A stretch of DNA of 64,000 nucleotides, from positions 3,584,001 to 3,648,000 of the forward strand of contig OZ245011.1 in NCBI GenBank assembly GCA_965223665.1, given 5' to 3'. The notes beneath the pieces were generated by a model. The model was not told the DNA's origin. It did not search any database and saw nothing but the letters and a program-made list of their open reading frames with translations. Below, in pieces: positions 27,398-45,405 of this stretch. The position numbers were made by a program, and so were the translations under genes. This stretch comes from Nitrospinaceae bacterium. Its GTDB lineage: Bacteria > Nitrospinota > Nitrospinia > Nitrospinales > Nitrospinaceae. Each line of letters begins with the position of its first letter. Position 1 is the first letter of the stretch.

Positions 27398-28921
27398 ATG
27401 GCTCAAGACCAGTTCGAAAATGAAGACGAGATCATTAAGAATGAAGAAGCACTTGAAGTTGCTGAAAACGATGATCTTGAAGAAGAAATAGAAGAAGATG
27501 CTCTCACTGCAGAAGAAATGGATGAGGTGGATGAGGTTGAGGTGCAGGAAGAAGAACCTGAAGTGGGTGCGATAATGGTTCTAGGGCAAGGTGATTTTTC
27601 TATGCGGGAATCTAATAGAGGGGCGGATGACCCTGGAGATAATACTTTAAGCGAGCCACAATTTGTAACTCGTTTCGGTGATATGGTTTTTGTTTCTGAT
27701 CGTGGAAACCATAGAGTTTTGGTTTGGAATAGTCTTCCAGAAGAATTGGGAGAGCCTGCAAGTATAGTTCTTGGCCAAGAAGATTTTTCGGATTGTTTGG
27801 AGAATAGAGGGATTACTACCACACTGGATGAAATGACATCGGGCCTAGGAGATGAAAACCTGGAAGGTTTTACAATTAGTAAGCCTGAAGAAGATACCCT
27901 GGCTCAGCCTGCAGGAATCGAAGTGATAGATGGAAAGCTTTATGTTTCTGACAGTGGTAATCATCGAGTGTTACGTTGGAATGGATTACCTTCTGATGAT
28001 GGGGAAGAGCCGGGCTTGGTTTTAGGACAGGATAACCTGGAATGTGGTGAAGCTAATCGTCGCGGATTTGTAGGATCTGGTTCTTTATTTTTTCCGTTTG
28101 CTGTTCGTTCCGGAAATGATCAACATGTATTTGTCGCGGATAAAGACAATCATCGAATTTTGATTTGGAATAAAATTCCATTCAATAATGGATGGAATGC
28201 AGACGTTTGTTTAGGACAGGCTGGTTTTGATGAAAGAGAACCAAACCGTGGAGATTTTGATCATGTCACACCGGAAACTTTAAGTTTTCCCACCGGTGTA
28301 TTTTTTGATCCTGAAACAGAAAAAATATTTGCGGTCGATCAGGGAAACAATCGAGTGTTAATTTGGAATAAAATTCCCTCTAATAATGGTGCTCCAGCGG
28401 ATTTGGTTTTAGGGCAACCTGATTTTTATAGTAGGGAGGTAAATGCAGGATTGGGTGAAAAGCGTACCTCTGCAGAAGGAATGTATTTTCCCACCGATGT
28501 TGTTTTTGGTCGTAAAGGACTATTTGTTTCAGACACAGGCAACAGCCGTATATTAGTATGGAAAGAATTTCCTACTGAAAACGGCCAACCTGCTGATTTG
28601 GTTATAGGTCAGGTTAATTTTACAGAGACCAAATTCAATCGTGGTGGTGATTGTACACATGCGACTCTTAATGATCCTTATGGAATGTATTTAGAAGAAG
28701 ATCCAGAAGATGAAGAGGATCCTGGAAAACTCTATATTTGTGATCGGGGCAATTCGCGAGTAGTGGTTTGGCAGGACCTACCAGAACCAAAAGTAGAAGA
28801 GGATGATGTAGAGGAAGGTCAAGAGGTAGAAGATCCCGAACTTCTTATGGGATCCGATGACGACTTTATGGATGACTTTGAAGACGAAGAAGAGGAAGAA
28901 ACTCCGAAAGAAATTGCCTAA
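27398..28921 (+). CDS. NHL-repeat beta-propeller protein with very acidic termini
   Basis: Six [VC][LI]GQxxF/L units alternating with SD/AD.GN.RV..W; D/E-rich N- and C-termini; no signal peptide. Confidence 0.85.
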   Translation: MAQDQFENEDEIIKNEEALEVAENDDLEEEIEEDALTAEEMDEVDEVEVQEEEPEVGAIMVLGQGDFSMRESNRGADDPGDNTLSEPQFVTRFGDMVFVSDRGNHRVLVWNSLPEELGEPASIVLGQEDFSDCLENRGITTTLDEMTSGLGDENLEGFTISKPEEDTLAQPAGIEVIDGKLYVSDSGNHRVLRWNGLPSDDGEEPGLVLGQDNLECGEANRRGFVGSGSLFFPFAVRSGNDQHVFVADKDNHRILIWNKIPFNNGWNADVCLGQAGFDEREPNRGDFDHVTPETLSFPTGVFFDPETEKIFAVDQGNNRVLIWNKIPSNNGAPADLVLGQPDFYSREVNAGLGEKRTSAEGMYFPTDVVFGRKGLFVSDTGNSRILVWKEFPTENGQPADLVIGQVNFTETKFNRGGDCTHATLNDPYGMYLEEDPEDEEDPGKLYICDRGNSRVVVWQDLPEPKVEEDDVEEGQEVEDPELLMGSDDDFMDDFEDEEEEETPKEIA

Positions 28922-28994
28922 AGTTGAATATAGCTAATTTAAATTAGTTTCGTCTTCGTCGCTATTCTTTGTTAAAATTTTTGCACTTTATAAG

Positions 28995-30014
28995 TTAAAT
29001 GCAATAGGGAGGAATTCCTTCCTCCACCCAACCCCCGGCTTGGTTATTTTGCAGATTATGCCGATTTTTTGCGATTCCAGACGCAATTATTTTTCGTGAT
29101 TCCTCAAAGCAGGCTGTTATTTTTTCCGGTGAATCCTTTAATAAATTACCAAAAGTGGGAACGCATTTGAGGTTGCCTACATCACAACAGGGTGTCATAT
29201 TTCCATTTTGTTGTACCGTCAATATATCAATCGATCCGCGAGCGGCCACACATTCTAATAAATAAGGATCGTTCGGAAACGGGTTCGATGTTAATGCCCG
29301 ATGACCGGCTTCATCCATTTTAAATGCAGGAAGAAGGTTAATACCAAAAATAAAGCCATTAGATTGTGCGAAAGCACCCGTATCTCCCATCCGCTGTGTA
29401 TATTGGTTTTCTCGGCAATCAGGTGAATCTTTAATCAAACCTATTATATTGGAATGATATTTCTTTAAGAGAGATAATACTTCAGCGTAACGGTTTCCTA
29501 ATTCTTGAAAACATTCAATTAGAATTTCCAATTGGGTTTTTAAATCCTCTATTGATTCAAAAACTACATTAACCAGCATTCTATTTTGCAGTTCAAGCAA
29601 TTTTATAAATAATGGTTTTTGACTTTTCTCCCATGCTTTAGGGTATAAAGTAATATCCACTCGTCCCTTTAGTTTTATTATTTCCAATAATCGTTTCCAT
29701 CTTGGTGAGTTCTCAGAAGAAATCTCAAGATTAGTATGAATGCAGACATTAGGGCTGATCTTTTGGAAAGCTTTAAATACGTTCACAATTTCAGGATTAA
29801 ATGTGGCTTCTCCCCCTGTCAGATTGATTTCTTGCGTGGCCAATTGTAAAAGTACGTCAACTTGTGAAATCTTTTCTGCCATGGTTTGGGCTTGTTCTGA
29901 GGTGATGTGCCAATCTGATTTTGGCATTTGAGTGAGGGGTTCAAAAACGTGGCAATAAAGGCATTCATCCCGCTCGTATCGATTGCAACTGGCTTCGACA
30001 AATATGCTGAGCAT
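28995..30014 (-). CDS. Radical SAM protein with atypical CX7CX2C motif and twitch/SPASM-like tail
   Basis: CNRYERDECLYC, LTGGE, HTN, GNMTPCC, FGNL. Confidence 0.75.
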   Translation of the reverse strand: MLSIFVEASCNRYERDECLYCHVFEPLTQMPKSDWHITSEQAQTMAEKISQVDVLLQLATQEINLTGGEATFNPEIVNVFKAFQKISPNVCIHTNLEISSENSPRWKRLLEIIKLKGRVDITLYPKAWEKSQKPLFIKLLELQNRMLVNVVFESIEDLKTQLEILIECFQELGNRYAEVLSLLKKYHSNIIGLIKDSPDCRENQYTQRMGDTGAFAQSNGFIFGINLLPAFKMDEAGHRALTSNPFPNDPYLLECVAARGSIDILTVQQNGNMTPCCDVGNLKCVPTFGNLLKDSPEKITACFEESRKIIASGIAKNRHNLQNNQAGGWVEEGIPPYCI

Positions 30015-30099
30015 AGCCCAATAAGTGGTTGAAATTTAAATAATAGGTACTTGCGAATATACTAACATATTTCATAATGAGGCTGGAATTATCTACCAA

Positions 30100-31479
30100 T
30101 TATTGTAGGTTCATATAGCCAAATTGAATGGGAGAGGATGGGGTAAAGAAGGCTTGAGTTAAGTCTTTTTCGCGATATCCCAATTTTCGAAGGGGTTTTA
30201 ATGCCGAAAACACTTCCTCTTTAGTAACATAGGCTACTGTATCGGGGACACCTCGAGGACTGAGTTTTTCTGTAAGCTGCTTAATTAGTTTTCTGGGTTT
30301 CTTCGGAGTTCCTGGCATAGGAGGAAATACCATTTTTTGCAAATAAGGGTTTTTATAAATAGTATTTAACGCATGCAAAGTTTGCAACATGAGGATGTCC
30401 ACATCCCAAGGATCCAATCGAGTAATATTGGGGTGGTTTTGAACTAAATCGACAGCGCTTACTATTTTTTCCCCTAAGTATTTTTCAACAAAAGTTTGCT
30501 GTGATTCAAAGTGAATTTTATTGAAACCAACTTCTCCAGCTATTTCTGCAAGCAAGGGAAAGTTGACCATCGACGTATATTGACCACCATAAATCTTAAA
30601 ATATGGCCGGCCCACCTGGTTTAAATAATCAAGAGAAAGCATCCCGTAATCGAAGGAGCTGTAACCCTGGTTTTTCAAAATTAATAATTCTTTGGCCCAT
30701 TTTATGGTGTTAAAAGCTCCAACATTTATAGGTGTGGGTATTTCCTCTTCAATGTTTTCTAAATGACGGGAGATAGTCTTTGCAAAAGGCCAATCGGTAA
30801 TATCCACCCTTTGAAAGGTCCGCTCCCAATAAATTTGATCTAAAAATGGTGGGAGATTTTTTAAATACTCTAAATTTTTTGAGGAAAACATTTCTACAAA
30901 TTTTTCCCAATCAATATCAAATGGTTTGGGATCTATTAGCGGTTGAATATATTCCTCATATAGGAAACCTTGGTTTTTTAGCAGCACTTTAGTTGCCAGG
31001 TCATCCCAAATTTCATTAGAAATAATTTTAGATATTGAATTTGTCTTGAACCCTTTAAAATTCTCAGCATGAAGGCGGACGGTTTTAAATCGCTCTTTAT
31101 GAGCTTCAAGGTTTGGATTCGAATGGACACCCTTAATTATTTCATCGGAATAATCACAAAGGAGATACAAGACTCTAGGGTAAATATTGTTTTCAATATC
31201 CAACTCCTTTAAATGAGATAAAAACCGTGCCGCCAAATTACCATTACCTACGCCCCATTCCATAATATAAACGGGAGTGGTCTCAGTTTTATCTGCATTT
31301 TGAAAAAAATCATCGGCTAAGGTGTGTGCTAGACGATGGTCTAAGCTGACATAGGTTTGGAAATGATTGTGAATTTCAGGACCTTTAATTCCATAAAAGA
31401 TATCATTGACATGAGTTTGCCATTCGTCGGTGGGTAAAAAATCCCCTAAGGGCAACAATTGATTTTGGGGATATTTCAT
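30100..31479 (-). CDS. SAM-dependent methyltransferase, MidA/NDUFAF7-like
   Basis: EWGVGNGNLA, SNEIWDDL, FDYG motifs. Confidence 0.7.
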   Translation of the reverse strand: MKYPQNQLLPLGDFLPTDEWQTHVNDIFYGIKGPEIHNHFQTYVSLDHRLAHTLADDFFQNADKTETTPVYIMEWGVGNGNLAARFLSHLKELDIENNIYPRVLYLLCDYSDEIIKGVHSNPNLEAHKERFKTVRLHAENFKGFKTNSISKIISNEIWDDLATKVLLKNQGFLYEEYIQPLIDPKPFDIDWEKFVEMFSSKNLEYLKNLPPFLDQIYWERTFQRVDITDWPFAKTISRHLENIEEEIPTPINVGAFNTIKWAKELLILKNQGYSSFDYGMLSLDYLNQVGRPYFKIYGGQYTSMVNFPLLAEIAGEVGFNKIHFESQQTFVEKYLGEKIVSAVDLVQNHPNITRLDPWDVDILMLQTLHALNTIYKNPYLQKMVFPPMPGTPKKPRKLIKQLTEKLSPRGVPDTVAYVTKEEVFSALKPLRKLGYREKDLTQAFFTPSSPIQFGYMNLQ

Positions 31480-31503: not shown

Positions 31504-32610
31504 TTAACTATCCCCAATGGTTTTTCCTGAAGTCGAGACTCCACCTGGAATTCCTGCATGATCAGTTTTAGATTGAGAGGAAGGAGCTTTCGACAACTCA
31601 TTGTAAGTTTCAAATGCTTTAGCAGCGTCTTCATGCCGCCCAATGTCTTTGTAGCAATTATAAAGATTTAACCAGGCACTTGAATCCCCTGGGTTCAAAG
31701 ATGTAGCTTTCTTAAATTCTTTAATAGCAGACTCTACCTTACCCAATGAAGCATATAGACTCCCTAAATTGGTATGGGGTAAGGAAAACTCAGGTTCGAT
31801 TTCATTAGCTTTTTTGAATGCCTCGATGGCTTCTTCCACCATGTTTTTCCCGGCGAAAGCGCTTCCCAGGTTACACCAGGCTTGAGGATCTTTTTCATCC
31901 AATTCCACAACACATTGAGCGCAGGTCAGGGATTCATCAAATTGACCATCTCGAAAATAAGCGTTTCCCAGCGCGGCTCGCAATTCCTTATTTTCAGGAT
32001 CAAACATGAGAACCTTTTTTAAAACCTTGATTTCATCACCAAATCTACTTTGCATATCTAAAGCTGCGGCTAAATTGGCATAAGCAGTAGTGTCGGTCGG
32101 GTTTATATCAACGGTTTTTTGGAATTCAATTGTGGCGCCTTCAAAATAATCCTGCAGCATATAAACACCACCCAAATTAAAATGAATTTCGGCGTCATCC
32201 GGAGAAAGTTCAGCAGCACGATTCAATTCTCGTACGGCTTCATCCTCTTGATCACTTAAGGCGTATGCTGTTCCTAATACTTTTAAAGCTTTTGCATTTT
32301 TGGGGTCCTTATTACTTACTTGCTTTACGACTTTGATAGCTTCATCATAGTTCCCGCCATCAATATACAAAGTCCCCAACTCTACTAACAAATCTGCATT
32401 TTCCGGGTCATCGCGCAACTCTTTTTTTACTTGTCGAGTTTTTTTCATAATGGCCGTTTCAAGTTTAATTTGCTCAGGGTCCCGAACCCCCAACTCTTCA
32501 AAAATCTCGGGATCAATTTTCATTGTTATGTAATCAGATTCTTTTTTACTGTCTTGACGTTGGCGATATCCCTCTACGTCAAAATCTTCATTAACATCTA
32601 TATCAGCCAT
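31504..32610 (-). CDS. Tetratricopeptide repeat protein
   Basis: About 8 TPR units (P.DA.....NLG); acidic N-terminus. Confidence 0.9.
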   Translation of the reverse strand: MADIDVNEDFDVEGYRQRQDSKKESDYITMKIDPEIFEELGVRDPEQIKLETAIMKKTRQVKKELRDDPENADLLVELGTLYIDGGNYDEAIKVVKQVSNKDPKNAKALKVLGTAYALSDQEDEAVRELNRAAELSPDDAEIHFNLGGVYMLQDYFEGATIEFQKTVDINPTDTTAYANLAAALDMQSRFGDEIKVLKKVLMFDPENKELRAALGNAYFRDGQFDESLTCAQCVVELDEKDPQAWCNLGSAFAGKNMVEEAIEAFKKANEIEPEFSLPHTNLGSLYASLGKVESAIKEFKKATSLNPGDSSAWLNLYNCYKDIGRHEDAAKAFETYNELSKAPSSQSKTDHAGIPGGVSTSGKTIGDS

Positions 32611-32735: not shown

Positions 32736-34562
32736 TTAAGTTTGTAAGGTAGGAGACCGAGTCTGGTCCTCAACCATGTTTTGAATTCCTTCTCGTCCGA
32801 AATGGTCTAAATACAACAAAAAGTGTTCGCGAGACAAGTAATTCCATATTTTTCTGGATGGAAAGTTTTCATTTAGAATGTTATCGAATTCCTGATAAAC
32901 ATCCATAACTTCTTCTTTAGGCATTCCTTCTCGGATTTCGTAATCAAACATGATGGCCATATCACGGTCAGGATCCTGAATAATTCGATCAATAGAAAAC
33001 TTTTCGGGATTATGATAAATAGCAGAGTCTTTTTCTAAAGTAAAAATAGATTGACCCACCGAGTGTATTATTCCAGACCCTAATTCACCGTTTCGAGATG
33101 TAAACTGAATGGTATCCTCTGCTTCTTCTCGTTTTTCAGTAGGGAATCCAAAAAACAGGTAAAGGTGATTCCAAATACCGGCTTTTGAGCTATTTTGTAA
33201 TACAATTTGTTCCGTTTTTTGATCACATCCTTTTTCAATTATAGAAAGAATTCGATCATTGGCACTTTCCAAACCAAAGAAAAGCATTATGAATCCTGCC
33301 TCATAAACTTCTCGAAATAGATCTACAGATTCAACGGTATCCGCTTCAAATTTGAGCATCCCTAAAGCGCGCATATCTAATTTTATTTTCGATATTGCCC
33401 TGGACATTCGCTTGAAAGCGTTAGGGGAAATGGCTTCATCGGAAAAAGTAAAATATCTTGTTTTATAACGTTTGCTTAGAAAATCAAGATCTTCCGCAAC
33501 ACGTTCTTCATTTTCTTTTCTATAAAAAGAATCGTAAATATGACTGTGTGTACAAAATGTGCATTTTCCCCAATAACAACCCCGGCTGGCCATGTAAGGT
33601 AAAACTGGGTAGGGCATAAGGTATTTTTCTAACGGCAACTGATCAAAAGTTGGGCGGGTCAATTGCTCATACGGAAGGGATTCTGCACGTGGATTTTGAA
33701 TCACCTTTCCATTTTCCAGGTAAATCAGGTTGGGAACTTCACTTAAACTCCCTCCTGCTTTTAGTTGTTCTACTAAACGAAGTAAGGGTAGCTCTCCTTC
33801 AAAAAGGATAATGCTATGGAAAAACTTTTCAAACAAGGCCCCTTTGGTTTCAATTATATTGAGGTGACGAGTAAATACACTACCACCGATTACTAAGTGC
33901 AAGCCGGGATACTTTTCCCTTAACAGGCGGGCCAAGGTCAGCCCAGGGATCACTTGTCCGACATGGATAATAGAAATTCCCACTAATCCATATTTTCCCC
34001 AATCAGTATGGTTCGATAATTGATTTTGGAAAAGATCTAAATAAGGATTTGTTTCCGGGTTTATGGTTTCAGCCAAAATTCCCTCTAGATTTTCCTCCGG
34101 ATTTCCTCGCATAAAAAAAGATTCCAGATCAATTCGGCTGGGGTAAAAAGCATAAGAAATGAGCTGCATTGCAACTTTTAGTGTTGTATATGCCTGCTTG
34201 TAAACTGGGAATTGAAAAAAGAGTTCCTCGTTTCTTAAAACTTCCTTGGACTCATCGACTGAAGATAAAATTGAATCTAAATACTCGGTGTCATTTAAAA
34301 TTTCTCTATATGTGGATTTTAATTGACTTGCTTCCTGGGTATAAGCAGGTTTTTGCAAACGATTCTGAATTATTTTTAAACATTGTTCCAGGTAAGGGCG
34401 TGACAAGAAAATGTTATAACTTTCAATATTTAAGTCGAATTGATCCACAGAATGACCCTTTTCTTCCAAAAATGCGGTCAATGTTGGTAAAGCCAAATAA
34501 GGTTGGCTTGGAAACCACTGTGGGGGAAAAACTAAGGCCGTTTTCATAAACCAATTAACCAA
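32736..34562 (-). CDS. Cobalamin-binding (class B-like) radical SAM protein
   Basis: PYLALPTL, GISI, IGG, EGE B12-binding region; SRGCYWGKCTFC, FGLES, GFPTE. Confidence 0.9.
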   Translation of the reverse strand: MVNWFMKTALVFPPQWFPSQPYLALPTLTAFLEEKGHSVDQFDLNIESYNIFLSRPYLEQCLKIIQNRLQKPAYTQEASQLKSTYREILNDTEYLDSILSSVDESKEVLRNEELFFQFPVYKQAYTTLKVAMQLISYAFYPSRIDLESFFMRGNPEENLEGILAETINPETNPYLDLFQNQLSNHTDWGKYGLVGISIIHVGQVIPGLTLARLLREKYPGLHLVIGGSVFTRHLNIIETKGALFEKFFHSIILFEGELPLLRLVEQLKAGGSLSEVPNLIYLENGKVIQNPRAESLPYEQLTRPTFDQLPLEKYLMPYPVLPYMASRGCYWGKCTFCTHSHIYDSFYRKENEERVAEDLDFLSKRYKTRYFTFSDEAISPNAFKRMSRAISKIKLDMRALGMLKFEADTVESVDLFREVYEAGFIMLFFGLESANDRILSIIEKGCDQKTEQIVLQNSSKAGIWNHLYLFFGFPTEKREEAEDTIQFTSRNGELGSGIIHSVGQSIFTLEKDSAIYHNPEKFSIDRIIQDPDRDMAIMFDYEIREGMPKEEVMDVYQEFDNILNENFPSRKIWNYLSREHFLLYLDHFGREGIQNMVEDQTRSPTLQT

Positions 34563-34600: not shown

Positions 34601-34629
34601 ATCATAGAATTACTGATTTGGCATGTCAA
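34601..34629 (-). promoter_or_regulatory. sigma70-type promoter of the radical SAM arm
   Basis: TTGACA-17-TATGAT on minus strand. Confidence 0.6.
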
Positions 34630-34740
34630 TGTGTGGCATGTTTTATTTTATAGATTGATAATTGCTAAACATTTGATCCATTTAAGAAAGGAGATATAGA
34701 TAAAAAGAATCATCTCTTTATTTCTAAGGGCCTAATGCTC

Positions 34741-34770
34741 TTGACACCTTATTAGGGAAACTTATATAAT
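34741..34770 (+). promoter_or_regulatory. sigma70-type promoter of the NHL/DUF1566 arm
   Basis: TTGACA-18-TATAAT. Confidence 0.6.
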
Positions 34771-34877: not shown

Positions 34878-35504
34878 TTGAGTGAGCAAGAAACTAAGTC
34901 CAATCCCGAAGAAGAAACACAAATTCCGGAAGAAGGGAAAGGCCCTGAAGAGGATTCTCAAAGATCCGAAGACCCTCTGGGAGACCTTTCTGACCTGGAA
35001 AAAATAAAAAAAGAGCTAGAAGCCGAAAAAGCGAAAGCAGCTAAGGAACTTGAGGAAGGTGAGGAGGAAGAAGAGGATTTACGTGAAGTAGACTTTTTAC
35101 AAAAACTCATCAATTTAGCTGTACAATTTGATCACCATGTAGGGGTTTATTTAATGGCGGGTTATATTGATTGTGGATTAAAATATGACCATAAATTGGC
35201 CGACAGTTATTTAAAGCATCTAGCATCAATTCAGGGTTTTTTAAGGCTCTTGGAAAAAGTAGATGGTGTAACTCGTGAAGCTGTGACAAAAGATTGTATT
35301 ATTCGTCTCAGAAATGTGGTTCAAGAAATCCATAAAAATTTAGTAAAACCGCTTTATAAAGAAGTGGGTCTGATGAAGAAGAAGCCTAAGATGGATAACT
35401 TGGAAGATTTTAAGCGTGAATGGAATGGGCGTTTGGAAGATTTACAAAATGCATGTGACTTTGAATATCAAGTTTTGGATGTAAAGAAGTTTTGGGTTAA
35501 TTAG
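34878..35504 (+). CDS. Hypothetical helical protein with acidic N-terminus
   Basis: AAGGAG RBS, TTG start, E-rich first ~70 aa. Confidence 0.75.
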   Translation: MSEQETKSNPEEETQIPEEGKGPEEDSQRSEDPLGDLSDLEKIKKELEAEKAKAAKELEEGEEEEEDLREVDFLQKLINLAVQFDHHVGVYLMAGYIDCGLKYDHKLADSYLKHLASIQGFLRLLEKVDGVTREAVTKDCIIRLRNVVQEIHKNLVKPLYKEVGLMKKKPKMDNLEDFKREWNGRLEDLQNACDFEYQVLDVKKFWVN

Positions 35505-35635
35505 TCAGATTAAATAAATTGGTCCTCAATAAATTAATAGGGATTTTTTGAATAAAACCACCCAGGCCGGCGTGCTTTTGGGTGGATTTTGTTTTTTTAA
35601 GAAGCCTTTTAGAGGGAATTATTCGAGCAGATAAT

Positions 35636-36658
35636 ATGCAAAATGATTTAGAAAATATTGAAAATGAAGTTGATTCAGAAAAAGAGGAATTAACAGAATC
35701 TGCCTTGGAATTAATGAATCAGGAAACTCTTCCTGAGGAGCAGCCAAAATGGAAAGAGGTCGATCATTCAAAACTTTATATATGGGTTGCGGACTCTGGA
35801 AACGATAGAATCCAAAAGTTCGATGGAAACGGAAAATTTCTTTTTGAATTTGGTCGATCTGCAGGAACGCGTCCTCCTTATGAACCTAGTCATTTTAAAG
35901 GTCCCTTTGGCATAGCAGTAGACCAGGAAGGGAATGTCTGGGTAGCTGATACAGGGTGCCATCGTATCCAAAAGTTTGATTCTGAAGGAGACTTTATTTT
36001 AGAGTTTGGCACTGAGGGTTATGGTCAAGACAAATTTTATTGGCCCGAATCTATAATTGCTGAGCCGGGAGGTACCATTTTAGTAGCGGATACTCACAAC
36101 CACTGTTTAAAAAGATTTGATGAAGACGGTGAATTTTTACTTGGGTTTGGTTTTGCGGGAGACTTCGATGGGTTTTGTAAATTTCCCACAGGGGTTGCGG
36201 TGGATGGAGAGGGTAATATTTATGTTGCGGATAGAGATAACCAGCGGATACAAATTTTTAATGAAGATGGTCAGTTTCTATCGAAGTTTGGAGAATATGG
36301 CTTTGAAGAAGGGCGGTTTAATTTTCCCTGTGACATAACCGTGCGAGGGGACGGTACTTTACTGGTATCTGAAAAAAGTCAAAATAGAGTTCAGATTTTT
36401 GATCGAGACGGGAATTATTTGGGATATTTTGGGGAATATGGAAAAAGAGACGGACAATTCAATTGCCCTATGGCGATTGAAGAAGATCCTTATGGTTTCG
36501 TTTTTGTTGTAGACACTTTAAACCACAGGATCCAAAAGTTTGACCCTGAATTAAACTTTATGTCCAAATGGGGTTCTGTGGGCGGAGAGGAAAAACAATT
36601 TAAAAACCCTTCGGGACTTTGCCTGTCTTGGGAGCCTGATTGGGCGCCGACAGATTAA
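35636..36658 (+). CDS. NHL-repeat 6-bladed beta-propeller protein
   Basis: Repeated F..P.G.AVD..G..WVAD..N.RIQKF; acidic N-terminus; start MQNDLE. Confidence 0.9.
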   Translation: MQNDLENIENEVDSEKEELTESALELMNQETLPEEQPKWKEVDHSKLYIWVADSGNDRIQKFDGNGKFLFEFGRSAGTRPPYEPSHFKGPFGIAVDQEGNVWVADTGCHRIQKFDSEGDFILEFGTEGYGQDKFYWPESIIAEPGGTILVADTHNHCLKRFDEDGEFLLGFGFAGDFDGFCKFPTGVAVDGEGNIYVADRDNQRIQIFNEDGQFLSKFGEYGFEEGRFNFPCDITVRGDGTLLVSEKSQNRVQIFDRDGNYLGYFGEYGKRDGQFNCPMAIEEDPYGFVFVVDTLNHRIQKFDPELNFMSKWGSVGGEEKQFKNPSGLCLSWEPDWAPTD

Positions 36659-36675
36659 ATTATTTTGGAGGGATT

Positions 36676-37305
36676 TTGTTTTTAGAACGAAAACTAAGTG
36701 AGTCGAAATATATTGTTGGAACCATTCTAATGGTTCTGGTTGTTTTTTTATCAAGCACTTCTGTTAGAAGCGAAGATAAGGCCATGGAAAAGGACCCTGA
36801 GTTCATGGGGCAGATTCTTACTTTGACCGAACCTAAAGTTGAAGTAGGAGAATCCAAGAATCCGCGGTTTAAGGACAATCAGGATGGGACGGTTTCTGAT
36901 TTGGATATGAAACTTATATGGGTGAAAGACGATTCTTACCAGCGGTTAAAAAAGTGGATTAACTGGGATATGGCTCAGGATTATATAAAAGAGCTTAATG
37001 ATAAAAAATTTGGTGGAGCAAACAACTGGCGTTTGCCTTCCCGTAAAGAACTGGCCAGCTTGTTTGATGAAAGTGTTTCTATTCCCTGGAATTATTATTG
37101 GACAAAGAATGAGGTGCATCTGGATCCCATTTTTGGTAATAGTCATTGTTGTTATTGGACGGGTGAAGAATATAAAAATGAGATGGCCTGGGGATTTAAC
37201 TTTATTCGGGGAAAAGCATATTTGAGTAAAAAAGGTGGGAATCAATTGTCTTTAACTGTGATCAGAGCGGTTAGAGAATTAGAAATGACAAGCCAAAAAC
37301 AGTGA
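36676..37305 (+). CDS. DUF1566 (Lcl C-terminal) protein with signal peptide
   Basis: RFKDNQDGTVSD, WRLPS..EL, YWT, IRAVR; hydrophobic N-terminus; start uncertain. Confidence 0.85.
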   Translation: MFLERKLSESKYIVGTILMVLVVFLSSTSVRSEDKAMEKDPEFMGQILTLTEPKVEVGESKNPRFKDNQDGTVSDLDMKLIWVKDDSYQRLKKWINWDMAQDYIKELNDKKFGGANNWRLPSRKELASLFDESVSIPWNYYWTKNEVHLDPIFGNSHCCYWTGEEYKNEMAWGFNFIRGKAYLSKKGGNQLSLTVIRAVRELEMTSQKQ

Positions 37306-37327: not shown

Positions 37328-38143
37328 ATGATTGCAGAGAGCGAAAATAATCCAGAAGAAACTCCTCCTGAGGAGACACCGGAACTCCCGGGAGAAGAAG
37401 AACATTTAAGTAAAAACTTCCAGGAGATGGAAGATGATCCACTTGAAAGAGCGCAAAAAGAAGGTGGGGAAGAAGCGGAGTTTGATCTTTCAGCCCAAAT
37501 TGAAGAATTTCGCAAACAAATAGAAGAGGAACCCGATAACTGTATTCATCATTACAATTTAGGGGAGGCTTTAGAGGAACTTGGTGAGCATGAAGAGGCA
37601 AAGTCTGAATATGAATTAGCCCTCCATTTGGATAAAGAAAAAGAATATCACTCCATCATTCATTATGGATTAGGAAATTTTTATTACGGTACACTCCTTT
37701 CTGGAATTCAATCGGTGGTGGTAAAAAGCTCTGTGGGATTACACTCTTCTCATAAACCTGGGGATAATATTACTGAGGTCAACGATTTAGATTATTCGGT
37801 TCCTATTGAGAATTTGGAAAAAGCTTTAGAGTATCTTCCCTTGCTAAAAGCGGATGATGATATTATTGATTTTATAAACAAGGAAGCTCCGACGCTTTTA
37901 GCAAATATTTATTATAAATGGGCATCGGATTTAATAGATAAGGCTCGGCAAATAGACAAGTATGGCGATGAGATAAAAGATGTAAAGCAAGCGTTACAAC
38001 TTTTAAAGAAATCGATTAATGTTGATCCTAACCATTCACAAGCAAGTATGACAATTAAATATGCAAAAAAAATGTTGGCAGAAGGTTGGAAAGTTTACGA
38101 TGAATATGGTTTTGAGGCTAAGCATATTGAGGGCTTAGAGTAG
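37328..38143 (+). CDS. TPR-containing protein with acidic N-terminus
   Basis: PDNCIHHYNLGEAL, IHYGLGNFY; E/P-rich first ~55 aa. Confidence 0.8.
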   Translation: MIAESENNPEETPPEETPELPGEEEHLSKNFQEMEDDPLERAQKEGGEEAEFDLSAQIEEFRKQIEEEPDNCIHHYNLGEALEELGEHEEAKSEYELALHLDKEKEYHSIIHYGLGNFYYGTLLSGIQSVVVKSSVGLHSSHKPGDNITEVNDLDYSVPIENLEKALEYLPLLKADDDIIDFINKEAPTLLANIYYKWASDLIDKARQIDKYGDEIKDVKQALQLLKKSINVDPNHSQASMTIKYAKKMLAEGWKVYDEYGFEAKHIEGLE

Positions 38144-38168: not shown

Positions 38169-38564
38169 ATGGCGGATATAAAAAAATTAATTAAAGATCA
38201 CCTAAGCAAAGATGGGCAGGTTCTCAGTTTAAAGGCAAAGTTTATTCGAGAAGTTGGAGCCAAAGAATTAGCTCAATGTGAGGAATTGTCTAAGTTGAGA
38301 TCCTTGGATTTATCTCAAAACGATATTGGGGATGAAGGTGTTAAGGCTATTGCCGAATCAGAAGTTTTTGAAAATTTAAGAACATTGAATTTAAAGTCGA
38401 ATAAGATAACTGATGAAGGAGCAGAATACTTGGCAAATTCAACAACATTGAGTAATTTAAGAAGTATTCAGCTGGTGGTAAATGACCTAACCGAGGAGGG
38501 AGAACGCGCTCTGATGAACTCCACTCAACTGATTAACCTTACATCATTGAAATTTCAGGTTTAA
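38169..38564 (+). CDS. Small leucine-rich repeat protein (RI-like)
   Basis: L..LDLSQNDIGDEGVKAIA, L..LNLKSNKITDEGAEYLA repeats. Confidence 0.9.
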   Translation: MADIKKLIKDHLSKDGQVLSLKAKFIREVGAKELAQCEELSKLRSLDLSQNDIGDEGVKAIAESEVFENLRTLNLKSNKITDEGAEYLANSTTLSNLRSIQLVVNDLTEEGERALMNSTQLINLTSLKFQV

Positions 38565-38873: not shown

Positions 38874-39365
38874 ATGTTAAAGAAAGCTGTTGCTGTTTTA
38901 GCTGCAGGCTTGGTTCTTGTGGTTTTTAGCTCCATGGCTACTGCCAACGAAACCACTTTGAAAGCAGGAGGGACATCAGTTTGTGAGAATGCTTCTTGGA
39001 TCGCTTATAATACCAGCGAATCAGAGAATACTAAGCTGACATTTAATGTTGGTCCACAAGCTTACCACTGGGGTAAAGACACCACCCGAGAAATTCCTCC
39101 CGGAGGATACCAAGCAAATGCTTTAGAAAGAAAAACTACATTTAAAAATCAAGGTCCAGCAGACGTTGTAGTTAACTGTCAACGACAGCGTTTTGACCGC
39201 CATGACTGGAGAATTGATGCTGGTTCCGGTAAAACCTACCAGAGCAATTATCACATGGATCACGTTCAACCTGGTACATACATTGAGCCCGGAATGGGCG
39301 TACCTACTGGTACAGAGCGTGGTATTGGCGCAGTTTCTGGACATCGATCAGAAGCTAATCGTTAG
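38874..39365 (+). CDS. Exported hypothetical protein
   Basis: GGGGGAG RBS, signal peptide, two Cys, own terminator. Confidence 0.8.
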   Translation: MLKKAVAVLAAGLVLVVFSSMATANETTLKAGGTSVCENASWIAYNTSESENTKLTFNVGPQAYHWGKDTTREIPPGGYQANALERKTTFKNQGPADVVVNCQRQRFDRHDWRIDAGSGKTYQSNYHMDHVQPGTYIEPGMGVPTGTERGIGAVSGHRSEANR

Positions 39366-39387: not shown

Positions 39388-39422
39388 AAAGCCGGAAGGG
39401 TTTCCCTTCCGGCTTTTTTTTT
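39388..39422 (+). terminator. Intrinsic terminator
   Basis: GCCGGAAGGG/CCCTTCCGGC stem plus T9. Confidence 0.9.
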
Positions 39423-39976: not shown

Positions 39977-40195
39977 ACTCTTGTAATTGGGGAAATTTAA
40001 AGTATGTCCTGTGACTAAATTAAAGTGTTTGCAATCAATGGGTTTAGTGTTGAAAAAAATTAAGGCGAATGATATTGTAGCCTTAATAAATTTTATAAAA
40101 CTATAGGTTAGACCTTTTTAAATCGGGCCGAACCCGTGGTCAGTTTTGGTTTGGAATTTAACCTGCTCCATGGCTGAGCCCTTTTTGTGTTTATT

Positions 40196-40636
40196 ATGGC
40201 TGATTGGAAAGAAATATTTAAGGATAATGGAAATGGAACAATTTCAGACTCTGATTCTGATTTACAGTGGGCAAAAAAGGACTCCAGGCAGGAATTAGGA
40301 AAGTGGCTCAATTGGGATGAAGCGAACTCCTATAAAGATGTCTGTAATGAACAAAAATATTTAGGATTTGATGATTGGAGGCTTCCTACAAAAAGTGAAA
40401 TTCGTGGGTTGGTAAAATTCAAGGAAGCATACTACGAATTATTTATGAATCTCCCTCCTAAAAAGAAACGGAATGTTTCAGATTACCAGCCAGGAGGAGA
40501 ATGGAGCTTGTGGACTTCTGATACGCGTTATGATTCATATGCTTGGAAATGTTATTTCCCTTCCGGTAAGGAAGTTTGTGTTGATCAACAGGTCTCAACT
40601 ACAGGAACGTCTGTTCGTCTGGTCCGTGATGCTTAG
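40196..40636 (+). CDS. DUF1566 (Lcl) domain protein
   Basis: FKDNGNGTISD, DWRLPT, LWTS, VRLVR. Confidence 0.9.
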   Translation: MADWKEIFKDNGNGTISDSDSDLQWAKKDSRQELGKWLNWDEANSYKDVCNEQKYLGFDDWRLPTKSEIRGLVKFKEAYYELFMNLPPKKKRNVSDYQPGGEWSLWTSDTRYDSYAWKCYFPSGKEVCVDQQVSTTGTSVRLVRDA

Positions 40637-41352: not shown

Positions 41353-41568
41353 ATGGGACACTATATGATTTTCGGGAAAGAAGATTGTCCGCATACAAAA
41401 AAAGCGAGGGATGATTTTAAAAAGAAATGCCGACCATTTGTTTATATTGATGTGGATAAGAATCAGCACGGCCTTAAAAAAATGTTGGAATATTCCAATG
41501 GCGAATATGTGGTCCCGGTGATTGTGGATGTTGATAAAGGTGATGTTGAAATTGGTTACACTGATTAA
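41353..41568 (+). CDS. Small glutaredoxin-like protein (CPHT)
   Basis: IFGKEDCPHT, YIDV, VVPVIVD cis-Pro motif. Confidence 0.75.
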   Translation: MGHYMIFGKEDCPHTKKARDDFKKKCRPFVYIDVDKNQHGLKKMLEYSNGEYVVPVIVDVDKGDVEIGYTD

Positions 41569-41586: not shown

Positions 41587-42108
41587 ATGACTGAGGAAGA
41601 AAAGAAATCGCAATCGCTGGAGGCAGTTCCAGAAAATCAAGAAGCAGTTGAAAAAAAGGATGAGGGTCCAAAACGATTTGTTGAAAAGGGTCCTTGGGTT
41701 ATTCATGATACAAAAACAGGGTTGTATTGGTTGAAAAAAGATTCTTGGCAAGAAAAGCAAAAGTTTTTTAATTGGCATGAATCTAAAGAATACGCCCAAA
41801 TGAAAAATGTTAGAAAAATTGGTGGATTTAATGACTGGAGAATGCCGAGTACCGATGAGGCTACTACTTTATTTGATGAAAACCTAAAAAATGTTGCTAA
41901 AGGTGGCGATGAAATTCACATTGATCCGGTATTTCCAGAAGGTTCTTTTAAAGTGCAATGGACTATGGCTGATACATCTACCAAAAGGCCCCGCTTTGAT
42001 TTCACCCAGGGAAAAGTAGTGCATGCTGATGAATATGCTTTTGGCTCAGTGCGAATTTGTAGAAAAGATCCTGTAAAAAAAGATGATCGGCGGCAACGAA
42101 GGAGATAA
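41587..42108 (+). CDS. DUF1566 (Lcl) domain protein
   Basis: DTKTGLYW, DWRMPS, IHIDPVF, VRICR. Confidence 0.85.
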   Translation: MTEEEKKSQSLEAVPENQEAVEKKDEGPKRFVEKGPWVIHDTKTGLYWLKKDSWQEKQKFFNWHESKEYAQMKNVRKIGGFNDWRMPSTDEATTLFDENLKNVAKGGDEIHIDPVFPEGSFKVQWTMADTSTKRPRFDFTQGKVVHADEYAFGSVRICRKDPVKKDDRRQRRR

Positions 42109-42115
42109 GGAAGCT

Positions 42116-43006
42116 ATGACAGCAACCAAAGTTAAACCTCGATATTTAGATAATGGTGATGGAACCATAACCGACCTTCGCAAAAATCTGATGTGGGTTA
42201 AAAACGATACTTGGGTTGAGCTGGGTCGTTTGATCACTTGGTGGGATGGAGCAGATTATGTGAAGGAATTGAACTCTAAAAAGTTTGCCGGGTTTTCCAA
42301 TTGGAGAATACCAAACGCACATGAGGCTAAAGAACTTTATGACCCGGGATTAAGTAATATTGATATGGAGGGATGTGAAATTCATATTGATCCAGTTTTT
42401 TCTTCAGGTTGTGGTTATTCCACATGGACTACTGAAACACGAGGAGCCAAAGCTGCTATGGGCTATGATTACCGAGCTGATTATGAGTTTTGGCTTGCTA
42501 GGGAAAACGATGGGTTCCCAAGTGGATTACGTCCCGTTAGGAGTATAGAAGAAGACGGGAAATTGCCTCGTGAAGAACGTTTTATTGATAATAGAGACGG
42601 AACGGTTAGCGATCTTGAAATGAATTTGATGTGGAAAAAAGATGATTCATTTTTGGATCTTGATAAATGGATTAGTTGGCAAGAGGCAAAAATATTCATT
42701 GGAGAGCTAAATAAAGATAATTTCGCAGGACATTCCGACTGGCGTATGCCATCCCGTAAAGAAGCGCAATCCATTCATGATCCCTCTAGCCCGGTGGAAG
42801 ATACCTATGGGGATACTATTTTTATTGTACCGACATTTTCTCCGGGTGCTGGCCAAACCTCTTGGACTAAAACTTTGCATAAGACTGATGATACGGTGGC
42901 GATTCGATTTAATTTTTATAGTGGAGATTTTAAGTTCCATAAAAAGGGTTTGAGAAGTCACGGTGTTCGACCGGTTAGGGATATTAAGGAAAGCTTGGAG
43001 AATTGA
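42116..43006 (+). CDS. Tandem double DUF1566 (Lcl) protein
   Basis: Two domains: RYLDNGDGT...LRPVR and RFIDNRDGT...VRPVR. Confidence 0.9.
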   Translation: MTATKVKPRYLDNGDGTITDLRKNLMWVKNDTWVELGRLITWWDGADYVKELNSKKFAGFSNWRIPNAHEAKELYDPGLSNIDMEGCEIHIDPVFSSGCGYSTWTTETRGAKAAMGYDYRADYEFWLARENDGFPSGLRPVRSIEEDGKLPREERFIDNRDGTVSDLEMNLMWKKDDSFLDLDKWISWQEAKIFIGELNKDNFAGHSDWRMPSRKEAQSIHDPSSPVEDTYGDTIFIVPTFSPGAGQTSWTKTLHKTDDTVAIRFNFYSGDFKFHKKGLRSHGVRPVRDIKESLEN

Positions 43007-43009: not shown

Positions 43010-43468
43010 ATGAGTCAATCTTCTGCACCGAAATCTCAATCATCAAAGACGTTGCGATTTGCTGAAGCAGATGAGCATTCAGTCATTGATTTAAAGAAAC
43101 GATTAATATGGCTAAAGCAAGATACTCGACAATTGACTGGAAAATGGCTTAGTTGGGTGCAGGCCAGGGATTATGCAAAAGAATTAAATTCTGCAAGTTA
43201 TGGGGGATTCAGGACCTGGAGAATGCCTTCGGTAGAAGAGGCTCGAACTTTATTTGATAAAACTCAATCCAATAAAGACCATATGGGTCAAAAAGCTTTA
43301 ATTCCGGAAGTTTTCCCTGAGGGGTTTGGTTTTTTGTGTTGGACTAAAGATGTGCGAAATAAGGTACAGGCAATCCGTTTCAGTTTTCGAAAAGGAAGTA
43401 TTATGTACGATGATATTTACAGGGTGTCCCGAGGGGCCACTCGATTTGTGAGAGAGATAGAGAAGTAA
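43010..43468 (+). CDS. DUF1566 (Lcl) domain protein
   Basis: LIWLKQD, TWRMPS, CWT, TRFVR. Confidence 0.85.
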   Translation: MSQSSAPKSQSSKTLRFAEADEHSVIDLKKRLIWLKQDTRQLTGKWLSWVQARDYAKELNSASYGGFRTWRMPSVEEARTLFDKTQSNKDHMGQKALIPEVFPEGFGFLCWTKDVRNKVQAIRFSFRKGSIMYDDIYRVSRGATRFVREIEK

Positions 43469-43471: not shown

Positions 43472-43900
43472 ATGGGTAAAAGATTCGTAGACAATGGGGA
43501 TGGGACGGTAACAGATAATGAAACCCAATTAATGTGGAAGCAAACGGATGGCTTTCAAGATGAAAGTATTTTTCACACATGGTTTAAAGCGGAAGATTAT
43601 GTTCGTAAGTTAAATTTAAAAAAGTTTGCCGGGTATAATGATTGGCGTATGCCAACATTAAATGAGGCTGAATCTTTATTTAATGAAGACGATCCAATTC
43701 GTGATTGTGACCGGTTTGAAATTTTCATTGATGATGCTTTTTCTCCAGGAGGGGGTTACACAACCTGGACTTGCGATTTAAAACCTCATAATGGGGCAGT
43801 GATTTTTTATTTTCGATACGGACATGCCAATGTCAATAACCGCGATGATCCGTCAAAAGACTCAATCCGGGCCGTGCGAAATATAATTAATAAAGAGTAA
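43472..43900 (+). CDS. DUF1566 (Lcl) domain protein
   Basis: RFVDNGDGTVTD, DWRMPT, FSPGGGYTTWT, IRAVR. Confidence 0.9.
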   Translation: MGKRFVDNGDGTVTDNETQLMWKQTDGFQDESIFHTWFKAEDYVRKLNLKKFAGYNDWRMPTLNEAESLFNEDDPIRDCDRFEIFIDDAFSPGGGYTTWTCDLKPHNGAVIFYFRYGHANVNNRDDPSKDSIRAVRNIINKE

Positions 43901-43978
43901 GGTAAATCATTATTTTTAAGAAGGAGGTTTGTCATCGAGGGCTATCATGTAATTAATCGAGAGGAAAGCCTCAATGCG

Positions 43979-44770
43979 ATGCTTACATACAGATTCGAAC
44001 AGGAGAATTTTCGTAACCTGTATGTATTGGAGGATTATTATTGCACTAATCCATTTTGCGATTGCAACCATGTGACTATTTCTTTTAGTGATAAGGAGAA
44101 TATTGATAACCGGTTTTCCTTTTTGTTGAACTTTAACAAAAAAACAGGAACATTACCCAACCAACCCGCTCTAACAACCGAACAGAATGCAATTGTTAAA
44201 GAGTTTATCGAAAGTCTTTCAGATGAGTTATTGATCTTATTTAAACAACGATATATGGAAGCAAAGGCTTTTGGGGAAAAGAACCCCATGTCCTATTTGG
44301 TATTTGAACCAGGACGTTATGTGAATTATATTGAAGTGCGCCCTCGGGGTAGCGAGCTTTTAGATTTTTCTTATAAAGGTGAAAAATATTTTGCCGAGGA
44401 TGCTTATGAATTAGATCCACGAAATGACAATAAAAGTGTCCAGCTTACCTTTTATAGATTTGAACAAGAGGATGAGAAAACACCTCCGATATTTGCATAT
44501 AAATTTTACTTTGATGAGAAAGAAAGAGAACAAGAGGACGCAAAACTTGATTCTGACAAAAGTGATATGTTATTAGAATTTAATGGGTTTATTCCTAATT
44601 TGAACGATATATTAAAAAAGCGTTACAAGGAAACAAAGGGAATTGGGAAAGAGCTTTTAAATTCTTCACCTAAATTGGAATTTCAACCTCATAAAATCTC
44701 TAGAAATGACCTGTGTCCTTGTGGTTCAGGAAAAAAATATAAGAAATGTTGTGCGTTAAAAATTAATTAA
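43979..44770 (+). CDS. SEC-C motif protein
   Basis: C-terminal RNDLCPCGSGKKYKKCC; N-terminal DYYCTNPFCDC. Confidence 0.85.
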   Translation: MLTYRFEQENFRNLYVLEDYYCTNPFCDCNHVTISFSDKENIDNRFSFLLNFNKKTGTLPNQPALTTEQNAIVKEFIESLSDELLILFKQRYMEAKAFGEKNPMSYLVFEPGRYVNYIEVRPRGSELLDFSYKGEKYFAEDAYELDPRNDNKSVQLTFYRFEQEDEKTPPIFAYKFYFDEKEREQEDAKLDSDKSDMLLEFNGFIPNLNDILKKRYKETKGIGKELLNSSPKLEFQPHKISRNDLCPCGSGKKYKKCCALKIN

Positions 44771-44850
44771 GAATTTTATTATTCTTGTTATTTAAAAATT
44801 AAAATTTAATTTCAGTAATTGATCACTGATAATTTTAAAGCGAGACCATT

Positions 44851-45405
44851 ATGAGTACCAAAGAGAAAAAAGTTAAAAAAGTCCAGGCACGTCATATTTT
44901 AGTGGCAACCAAAGAATTAGCTGAAGAATTGAAGCAAAAAATTGATGAGGGAGAGGACTTCGCTAAACTTGCTGAACAACATAGCGAGTGCCCTTCGAAA
45001 AAGCGAGGTGGCGATTTAGGTTGGTTTGGAAAAGGTGCAATGGTTAGGCCTTTTGAAGTGGCCGCGTTTTCTGCACAAGAAGGAGATATTGTTGGTCCTT
45101 TAAAAACCGAGTTTGGTTGGCATCTGATCTATGTTTATGAAATCAAAGATGATGTTGACCCTGACTCCGGGCCACCTACTGGCGATGAAGATGCGGATGA
45201 AAAAACGCTACGCTTAGTTGCAGAAAATTATGCGCATGAGTTTTTGATGTTAGGTTACTCTAGTAAAAAAGTTTTGAGTTTGTTTACCAGTACCCATTTT
45301 AAATCTGCAAATGCTGTCTATAATATTTTGGGTGAAGAGGTTATCAATGAAGTTATAGCCAAAGTTTTTGGGCAATCTGGAAAATCTGAAGAGGGAAAAA
45401 AATAG
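44851..45405 (+). CDS. Parvulin (PpiC) fused to an extra C-terminal helical domain
   Basis: ARHILV, HSECPS..RGGDLG.F..G.MV..FE, TEFGWHLI; ~80-aa extension. Confidence 0.9.
   Translation: MSTKEKKVKKVQARHILVATKELAEELKQKIDEGEDFAKLAEQHSECPSKKRGGDLGWFGKGAMVRPFEVAAFSAQEGDIVGPLKTEFGWHLIYVYEIKDDVDPDSGPPTGDEDADEKTLRLVAENYAHEFLMLGYSSKKVLSLFTSTHFKSANAVYNILGEEVINEVIAKVFGQSGKSEEGKK

Follow-up and report, generated by a model that had tools for sequence, protein, structure and literature searches.

A conserved, order-specific gene block of Nitrospinales and the sequence links of two of its genes to nitrite oxidoreductase operons

The genome of a Nitrospinaceae bacterium (GenBank assembly GCA_965223665.1) contains, within a stretch of 64,000 nucleotides (contig OZ245011.1, positions 3,584,001 to 3,648,000 of the forward strand; here called the window), a block of 21 non-overlapping open reading frames (ORFs) between window positions 27398 and 45405, and the question raised by this locus is whether these genes form one system and what they serve. 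The window proteins were taken from an ORF listing, numbered g01 to g21, and assigned to families by Pfam and NCBIfam scans. The 21 genes are tightly packed and interrupted solely by a divergent promoter region. From this region, the minus arm contains g05 (radical S-adenosylmethionine (SAM) enzyme), g04 (TPR protein), g03 (MidA-like methyltransferase) and g02 (atypical radical SAM enzyme), and the plus arm contains g06 (orphan), g07 (NHL), g08 (DUF1566), g09 (TPR), g10 (LRR_6), g11 (no family), g12 to g14 (DUF1566), g15 (glutaredoxin-like), g16 to g19 (DUF1566), g20 (SEC-C) and g21 (parvulin). A first-pass annotation had described about 20 contiguous genes of these families, no mobility genes and no recognizable pathway. 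All three points hold: the families were reproduced by both scans, neither the block nor the remainder of the window showed a mobility gene (Pfam scan and inspection of the flanks), and no description of the block was found in Pfam, NCBIfam, PADLOC, PDB or the literature, the last of which gave the NxrX precedent only. PADLOC defence models showed merely weak generic matches (≤37.8 bits) to TPR, radical SAM and SEC-C-like pieces. The block is real, order-specific, strongly conserved and previously undescribed, and two of its genes, g06 and g21, are now tied by sequence to nitrite oxidoreductase (NXR) operons in several phyla. Genomes, loci and families are designated by G, L and f numbers where single cases have to be told apart (G000 is the source genome).

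Forty genomes of relatives, which span four families and 14 genera, were searched with g05, and about 20 kb were fetched around 20 orthologues in order to align the window proteins onto these loci. An orthologue of g05 with 65-92% identity was found in 36 of the 40 relatives, and the other four hold pieces of it cut by short contigs. The genes g05, g04 and g03 are contiguous in all 20 loci, always with g04 between the other two. The plus arm lies head-to-head with the minus arm, in the same gene order, in 16 of the 20 loci (three of the four families). In family f3, four loci show the minus trio without the plus arm, and in four of four further loci of this family the plus arm is located elsewhere, otherwise intact but with g12 missing and g17 and g18 swapped. 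Inserts of 1.4-4.5 kb separate the arms in four further loci. Gene order and the identity of each slot are kept across the four families at 48-95% amino acid identity, which is comparable to the neighboring serA (70-97%); g07 shows 64-94% identity across the 21 loci holding it and g10 shows 69-95% in the 20 of 20 loci that extend to it. Because the arrangement of both arms is conserved across the order, the block is not a chance neighborhood.

The phylogenetic distribution agrees with this, and the genes proved to be co-inherited and syntenic across the order; the scattering that the first-pass annotation had named as contrary to its proposal was not seen. Of the 101 other genomes of the order, 92 have one copy of g06, and the misses are mostly genomes less than 90% complete; it was not found in the 14 genomes of families f6 to f9, and outside the order it gave two weak matches only, both in family f5 and both corresponding to a parvulin fusion protein described below. 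The gene g03 is found in 89 of the 101 other genomes of the order and in none of 18 outside it. An apparent loss of g03 in one genus (labeled g21 as a taxon, not the gene) was judged unsafe: G090, listed as a single contig, may be a stitched metagenome-assembled genome, and G089 breaks at a contig end inside g05. G090 shows cut-down g05 and g07 pieces around an intact g06 (L043 and L044; G090:C1:1390500-1422000), with g09 and g10 about 17 kb away.

The separation of the arms in f3 (4/4 loci) points to a pair of operons, not to a single proven system. Each arm has its own predicted, near-consensus sigma-70 promoter in the divergent region (34601..34770), at 34629-34601 on the minus strand for g05 (11/12 consensus matches) and at 34741-34770 on the plus strand for g06 (12/12). 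The -35 hexamer of g06 is kept in eight of nine aligned genomes (families f1, f2 and f4), and the subsequent -10-like box differs among families. A shared operator was also sought in the divergent region of the aligned genomes, where conservation is confined to the promoter hexamers. Downstream of g11, a strong terminator-like hairpin on the plus strand (39388..39416; 13-bp stem with eight G-C pairs, followed by a T run) is predicted to split the plus arm into at least two transcription units. The locus is thus described as two neighboring operons, order-specific and vertically inherited, which may plausibly cooperate.

Three sequence relationships tie the first and the last gene of the plus arm to NXR, and this connection was not foreseen in the first-pass annotation. 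The gene g21 (44851..45405, plus strand) encodes a parvulin prolyl isomerase (residues 1-100; Rotamase 86.1 bits, Rotamase_3 89.1 bits) followed by a C-terminal domain (residues ~108-175). The gene g06 (34878..35504, plus strand) encodes an orphan protein of 208 amino acid residues, whose N-terminus is acidic and disordered and which contains a helical bundle. No Pfam or NCBIfam family matches g06, and its family is very small: 1.84 billion proteins yielded 22 representatives at E≤1e-3. The AlphaFold2 model of g06 shows five helices with a predicted local distance difference test (pLDDT) of 69; Foldseek found no PDB match at E≤0.001, the VIA wide search returned generic helical bundles (best Z 10.8, where about 13 is meaningful for bundles), nothing scored above 0.80 in Atlas, and the best profile match in PDB had an E of 0.027.

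The first relationship was found in two genomes of a sister order, G041 and G043 (family f5), which encode a 275-residue protein that fuses a g21-like parvulin to a g06-like domain (for G043: L042, G043:C45, 7-834). The best match of its parvulin part in the source genome is g21 (53% identity), and its g06-like domain was recognized with an hhalign probability of 94% (E 1.3e-7). In G041, the fusion closes an NXR-type operon (L037, G041:C104, 1083-12873); the gene order is HExxH/zinc-ribbon protein, NxrA-like, NxrB-like, NarJ-like, EB_dh subunit, fusion, MoaA and B12 radical SAM enzyme, and the NxrA-like gene is 61% identical to NxrA of the source genome.

The second relationship involves the first gene of that operon. 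In two proteins, P0134 and P0265, a g06-like domain (E 9.7e-13 in the family search; hhalign probability 88%, E 3e-6) is joined to a member of the HExxH/zinc-ribbon family, and this partner shows 40% identity over 329 residues (E 1e-83) with the first gene of the G041 operon. Members of the family range between ~320 and 400 residues, show an HExxH motif and a CxxC...CxxC zinc ribbon, and had no Pfam match in the members scanned. One copy of the family occurs in each of 38 of 41 Nitrospinales genomes; the gene lies directly upstream of nxrA in G040 and G022, and in the source genome it adjoins a NarJ-like gene (G000:C1:4014084-4017299, with the HExxH gene at 4014084-4015256). Eighty loci of the family (L045-L124) were inspected, from Nitrospirota, Nitrospinota, an anammox bacterium, Methylomirabilota, Chloroflexi, Hydrothermarchaeota and others, and 57 of them show an NxrA, NxrB, NarJ-like or EB_dh gene within 7 kb: 27 of 33 labeled Nitrospirota, 18 of 33 labeled Nitrospinota and 12 of 14 from other phyla. 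The HExxH proteins of Brocadiales and Nitrospirota do not contain a g06-like domain.

The third relationship concerns the C-terminal domain of g21, which matches an ORF of ~92 residues located between nxrA and nxrB in three loci (L072, 5078-5359; L049, 10106-10384; L098, 8039-8413), belonging to an uncultured bacterium, Anaerolineae and Methylomirabilota. The domain aligned to this small-ORF family with an hhalign probability of 85% (E 6e-6), and a reverse tblastn search of the small ORF on the whole source genome returned g21 as the sole match (E 3.5e-6). A homology of the C-terminal extension of g21 to g06 itself was also considered and rejected, with a probability of 0.3%. The window has four prolyl isomerase genes (1065-2144, 17395-18459 and 44851-45405): a SurA-like parvulin, two tandem cyclophilins and g21.

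Three small families linked to NXR operons are thus defined, namely the g06-like domain, the HExxH/zinc-ribbon protein and the small ORF between nxrA and nxrB; database searches gave them no assigned function or source name, and no literature search was aimed at them. A prolyl isomerase has a precedent among NXR accessory genes. In Nitrobacter, nxrX encodes a prolyl isomerase thought to aid NXR folding and is found in the central nxr cluster with nxrA, nxrB, narJ and nxrC (PMC4786786); its place between nxrA and nxrB follows there solely from the order of locus tags. Likewise g21 is a parvulin-type prolyl isomerase, here likened to NxrX by enzyme class, and both its C-terminal domain and the g06-like domain are found again in NXR-type operons or fused to their accessories. 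In contrast to the accessory genes of NXR and nitrate reductase operons, g06 and g21 bracket 14 genes (NHL, TPR, LRR, DUF1566, glutaredoxin-like and SEC-C), a set found in no described maturation system, and the block has no NarJ-type gene.

The minus arm encodes two or three putative protein-modifying enzymes. The g05 protein (32736..34562, minus strand; 608 residues) resembles B12-type radical SAM enzymes, with a PF04055 Radical_SAM score of 44 bits (cut-off 29.5). Its best NCBIfam match is TIGR03975 (109 bits against a cut-off of 281.85), and it also matches 15 further radical SAM models of NCBIfam, 14 of them of the B12 type and all below cut-off; against TIGR04014, the methyl-coenzyme M reductase glutamine C-methyltransferase, it scores 50 bits (cut-off 360). 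It aligns with these B12 radical SAM methylases over the B12-like and the radical SAM parts, and is accompanied by a second SAM enzyme and a TPR adaptor; however, it differs from them in scores far below the cut-offs, in a C-x4-C-x2-C cluster motif instead of the usual C-x3-C-x2-C, which is present in 20 of 20 orthologues, and in that no precursor peptide gene was found. The assignment of g05 to TIGR03975 as a C-methyltransferase of ribosomally synthesized and post-translationally modified peptides (RiPPs) was rejected, on its score and on the lack of an adjoining precursor peptide gene. The nearest solved relative is OxsB (PDB, E 8e-7). As to the N-terminal cobalamin-binding domain of class B radical SAM methyltransferases (PF02310), no match at E≤0.01 was found in the Pfam scan of the window protein, and three paralogues (33-35% identity) show weak PF02310 matches of 28-34 bits, one of them barely above the 32.1-bit cut-off. 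The paralogues stand alone in mixed neighborhoods. One of them (35% identity) is divergent from a gene for a 752-residue NHL protein (L039, G000:C1:3326000-3345000, 7022-11557), which gives the source genome another B12-type radical SAM enzyme paired with an NHL protein, and two of the three close paralogues adjoin small cupin genes.

The g04 protein (31504..32610, minus strand; 368 residues) matches many TPR families, such as TPR_11 with 142 bits. In G002, a gene for a 225-residue membrane protein, similar by eye to CPBP-type intramembrane proteases, is inserted between g05 and g04 (L014, 13840-14517). The single-copy g03 (30100..31479, minus strand; 459 residues) encodes a putative MidA/NDUFAF7-like SAM-dependent methyltransferase. 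MidA/NDUFAF7 is a protein arginine methyltransferase and an assembly factor of respiratory complex I. The g03 protein matches the N-terminal half of PF02636 and keeps a glycine-rich SAM motif, which is invariant among the orthologues; it differs in a score barely under the cut-off (23.1 against 23.3 bits), in coverage of positions 2-125 of the 249 of the profile, and in that its own profile had no match among PDB sequences. Ten of 11 orthologues match PF02636 at E≤0.01 (best 2.6e-8). By analogy with MidA, g03 would be a methyltransferase that helps a respiratory enzyme to assemble.

The last gene of the minus arm, g02 (28995..30014, minus strand; 339 residues), encodes an atypical radical SAM protein with a C-x7-C-x2-C motif, non-canonical with respect to C-x3-C-x2-C, a GGE motif and a C-terminal cysteine cluster. 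Its PF04055 score is 20.1 bits (cut-off 29.5), no SPASM family matches it, and its profile found no match among PDB sequences. Nine cysteines are invariant in ten sequences (C10, C18, C21, C200, C255, C276, C277, C284 and C338); the six beyond the motif suggest a putative auxiliary cluster, though no model matches one. The presence of g02 is variable (7/20 loci), and in four loci of one genus a copy or paralogue is found inside the plus arm, between g08 and g09. Among the matches listed, the g02 homologues that bear a lineage name belong to Nitrospinota, and the names carried by homologues of the window proteins put the source lineage in this phylum. The intergenic gaps of the minus arm, 125, 24 and 85 bp in the window, contain no conserved small ORF resembling a precursor, and the inserts within the loci of relatives encode unrelated proteins.

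The plus arm is rich in DUF1566 (Lcl_C, PF07603) proteins, with eight genes and nine domains that score 53-129 bits, all above the 34.9-bit cut-off; a scan of the own genome recovers the same nine places. These genes, all on the plus strand, are g08 (36640..37305; 73.9 bits, with an N-terminal membrane anchor or signal), g12, g13 and g14 (39437-39976, 40187-40636 and 40683-41318; 68.8-70.6 bits, no signal peptide, g14 with a very acidic N-terminus), and g16, g17, g18 and g19 (41587-42108, 42083-43006, 43010-43468 and 43472-43900; 53-129 bits, g17 with two domains). A tree of 88 DUF1566 domains, generated by a quick method with one fragment row included, required the minimum of eight label changes for the nine slots. 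The slot clades have Shimodaira-Hasegawa-like approximate likelihood ratio (SH-aLRT) supports of 98-100 except those of g13 and of g08, which shuts out one fragment row; both exceptions were deemed artefacts. As the nine slots form separate orthologue clades, the domains diverged before the order radiated and each has been retained since.

The first-pass annotation had assigned a C-type-lectin-like fold to the DUF1566 proteins, and structural modeling agrees. The g19 model (pLDDT 95.4) has its best Foldseek match in PDB with 8q4e, the C-terminal domain of Legionella Lcl (E 2e-3, probability 1.00), followed by 8oks (Bdellovibrio Bd2740, probability 1.00) and then by EgtB, PvdO, formylglycine-generating enzyme (FGE) and C-type lectins, all with E of 2e-3 or weaker. 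Across 86 sequences, the residues W22, D26, W58, W99, R133 and R136 are invariant and no cysteine or histidine is; the conserved Cys/His feature of the catalytic lectin-fold enzymes FGE and EgtB is therefore not found in the cluster domains, which we read as probable non-catalytic binding modules rather than enzymes. The cluster proteins share family and fold (on the g19 model) with the DUF1566 adhesins Lcl (8q4e), Bd2740 (8oks) and Leptospira Lsa25, but differ from them in that most lack an export signal (7/8), in that they form an ordered array of anciently diverged and mostly single-domain proteins, and in that they are not fibre tips or lipoproteins. Lcl_C matches number 26 in the source genome; 17 lie outside the cluster, and 11 of those have no signal peptide by eye. 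LRR_6 and NHL paralogues are likewise numerous. Outside the order, five genomes showed 6-17 DUF1566 matches each and no array of comparable size was seen. A 378-residue frame elsewhere in the source genome carries a DUF1566 domain (G000:C1:1079715-1080107) behind an N-terminal part resembling, by eye, a response-regulator receiver, which would fit a cytoplasmic use of the fold in this lineage.

The remaining plus-arm genes, also on the plus strand, encode mainly repeat proteins and small putative thiol or zinc proteins. The g07 protein (35582..36658; 358 residues, NHL 122 bits) is an NHL propeller with an acidic N-terminus; g09 (37328..38143; 271 residues, TPR_17 27.3 bits) has TPR motifs and an acidic N-terminus, with nothing beyond generic TPR matches outside the order; g10 (38169..38564; 131 residues, LRR_6 63.8 bits) is an RNI-like LRR_6 protein; and g11 (38874..39365; 163 residues) is predicted to be exported by its signal-like N-terminus and has no Pfam or NCBIfam match. 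The small g15 (41353..41568) is glutaredoxin-like (Glutaredoxin 32.2 bits) and scores 79.4 bits (cut-off 72) with NF041114, a UXX-star family described as glutaredoxin-like selenoprotein family 1. It has a single invariant cysteine, in the motif DCP[HY]T, and ends with GYTD followed by TAA; none of 21 sequences shows a C-terminal selenocysteine or cysteine in the X-X-stop position (no TGA-X-X-stop and no Cys there). The g20 protein (43979..44770; 263 residues) carries a motif rich in Cys in its N-terminal part and a SEC-C zinc motif (42 bits) in its C-terminal part; the alignments do not cover this tail in L015, L027 and four f3 loci. Outside the order its matches are confined to SEC-C-motif tails, mostly in frames of ~800 residues or more, and its best score in Atlas was 0.75.

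Nearly all proteins of the block had been described as lacking signal peptides, and this is the case for 19 of the 21 window proteins, a pattern kept in the orthologues. The hydrophobic N-terminal segments are those of g08 and g11, found also in 15 of 16 and 16 of 17 of their orthologues, respectively; 18 of 20 scored gene families (g17 was left out of the scoring) lack one in every orthologue examined. The acidic tails noted earlier are conserved in five families and are mostly N-terminal: acidic N-termini were found in six of nine orthologues of g01, 17 of 18 of g06, 12 of 17 of g07, and 18 of 18 of both g09 and g14.

At the left border, g01 (27398..28921, plus strand) encodes an NHL-repeat propeller of 507 residues (NHL 84.8 bits) and is convergent with the minus arm. 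Its protein has a net charge of -86, with both ends strongly acidic, 24 Asp or Glu among the first 50 residues and no signal peptide. It adjoins the minus arm in 11 of 20 loci (L013-L019, L021, L023, L024 and L031) and is out of reach in the f3 and f4 loci; its linkage to the cluster is loose. The right border is marked by a bidirectional terminator-like hairpin (45427..45460) between g21 and serA (45467-47044, minus strand). The block is flanked by ordinary chromosomal genes, on the left one for a cytochrome c/EB_dh protein and on the right serA, and Rfam at E≤1 over 24000-49000 gave just two chance-level matches. Elsewhere in the window, moeA and a mobB-mobA fusion, both molybdenum cofactor genes, lie at 6292-8630, about 20 kb upstream of the cluster, and a second cytochrome c/EB_dh gene (59665-61230) lies near genes for an FGE-sulfatase-domain protein (58923-59678) and a sulfite-oxidase-like molybdopterin oxidoreductase (57933-58907).

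Taken together, we tentatively read the plus arm as a possible set of cytoplasmic helpers in the biogenesis of NXR, which adjoins a protein-methylating module. The products of g06 to g21 would be soluble cytoplasmic helpers for an abundant exported enzyme, most likely the periplasmic NXR. The parvulin g21, the helical g06, the monothiol glutaredoxin-like g15 and the SEC-C zinc protein g20 would fold or hold this client, and the NHL, TPR and LRR proteins together with the nine fixed DUF1566 domains would serve as non-catalytic binding adaptors. The minus arm (g05, g04 and g03, with or without g02) would form a protein-modifying module that combines a B12-type radical SAM enzyme and a MidA-like methyltransferase with a TPR adaptor and a second radical SAM enzyme, and its target could be the same client or the plus-arm proteins. 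The sequences themselves show the gene content, its conservation, the lack of export signals in most products and the domain links of g06 and g21 to NXR operons; we infer that the genes between g06 and g21 may share the role of these two, that the client may be NXR and that the arms may cooperate. The fullest version, in which a methylating operon and a holdase/foldase operon (nine lectin-fold modules, NHL, LRR, TPR, parvulin and g06) form an order-specific NXR maturation machine that is dedicated to this key energy enzyme and escorts it to export, with methylation on NXR or its partners, is quite unlikely.

Several findings weigh against a role in NXR biogenesis. In the source genome, the cluster, and g21 with it, lies about 600 kb from nxrABC (nxrA at G000:C1:3002631) and outside the nxr operon, whereas the fused homologue of the sister order lies within such an operon, and among the complete relatives compared by coordinates, not one was seen to have the cluster next to nxr. 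An nxrA gene at E≤1e-100 was found in just 48 of 120 genomes of the phylum and in none of five genomes of the genus labeled g9, which keep both arms; in that genus the absence may reflect assembly loss, because four of the five genomes keep the HExxH accessory gene. In G041, which has an NXR-type operon, g03 is missing, g09 and g20 find only generic counterparts, and the six DUF1566 matches are scattered and form no array; an NXR-type enzyme can therefore do without the full cluster. Furthermore, the three links involve g06 and g21 alone, which the predicted terminator after g11 would place in different transcription units, and they are remote homologies from shallow alignments, with hhalign probabilities of 85-94%.

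The first-pass annotation had proposed that both arms build one lineage-specific intracellular assembly, such as a scaffold, compartment or sensor array; in this view the binding proteins would be the substrates of the enzymes, and a link to NXR would not exist. We consider this doubtful. The head-to-head arms in 16 of 20 loci, the g02 paralogue within the plus arm in four loci, the order-wide distribution shared by both arms, the acidic N-terminal tails on proteins of both arms in the window, and the retention of each DUF1566 slot as a separate orthologue, as expected for the fixed positions of a heteromer, are all consistent with it. However, the arms are apart in 4/4 f3 loci and separated by inserts in four others, f3 has lost g12 and swapped g17 and g18, the shared distribution is confounded by common descent, and the view leaves the three links between NXR and these genes (g06 and g21) unexplained. 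What joins the arms positively is limited to their adjacency and the g02 copies, and a compartment or sensor array in particular found no direct support. The opposite explanation, that the block has no joint function and consists of independent genes of genome-expanded families, in which NXR helpers would be confined to g06 and g21 and the target of the minus arm would be unrelated, is unlikely. It agrees with the many Lcl_C matches outside the cluster (17/26, with 11/17 also lacking a signal), with the LRR_6 and NHL paralogues, with the predicted terminator within the plus arm and with the solitary g05 paralogues, but the order and slot identity held at serA-like conservation are hard to explain without selection on the arrangement, and the 21 genes are tightly packed, with no break but the divergent promoter region.

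Two further explanations each concern one arm. If the DUF1566 proteins were exported non-classically to build a structure on the surface or in the periplasm, their export helpers would be the parvulin and SEC-C proteins; the nearest solved relatives, the C-terminal domains of Lcl and Bd2740, which we take to be parts of extracellular adhesins, and the predicted export signals of g08 and g11 point in this direction. Nevertheless, seven of the eight DUF1566 genes have no signal or anchor, none was found in 98 orthologues of six scored genes (g17 left out), g20 and g21 have no signals either, and the Pfam and NCBIfam scans show no secretion-system gene in the block, which makes export very unlikely. 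That the minus arm is a RiPP or natural-product pathway is highly improbable: although the best NCBIfam match of g05 is the RiPP radical SAM C-methyltransferase family TIGR03975, its score is well short of that cut-off, the gaps and inserts described above encode nothing resembling a precursor, no protease or transporter accompanies the arm, and its genes are universal and single copy in the order.

Nitrospinales perform much of the nitrite oxidation in the ocean, and to our knowledge the folding, cofactor loading and export of their periplasmic NXR are largely unknown. The cluster is conserved about as well as a housekeeping gene, is universal in the order and is built from binding modules. 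Should the link to NXR fail, an ordered array of nine putatively cytoplasmic lectin-fold domains would still be without a described parallel.

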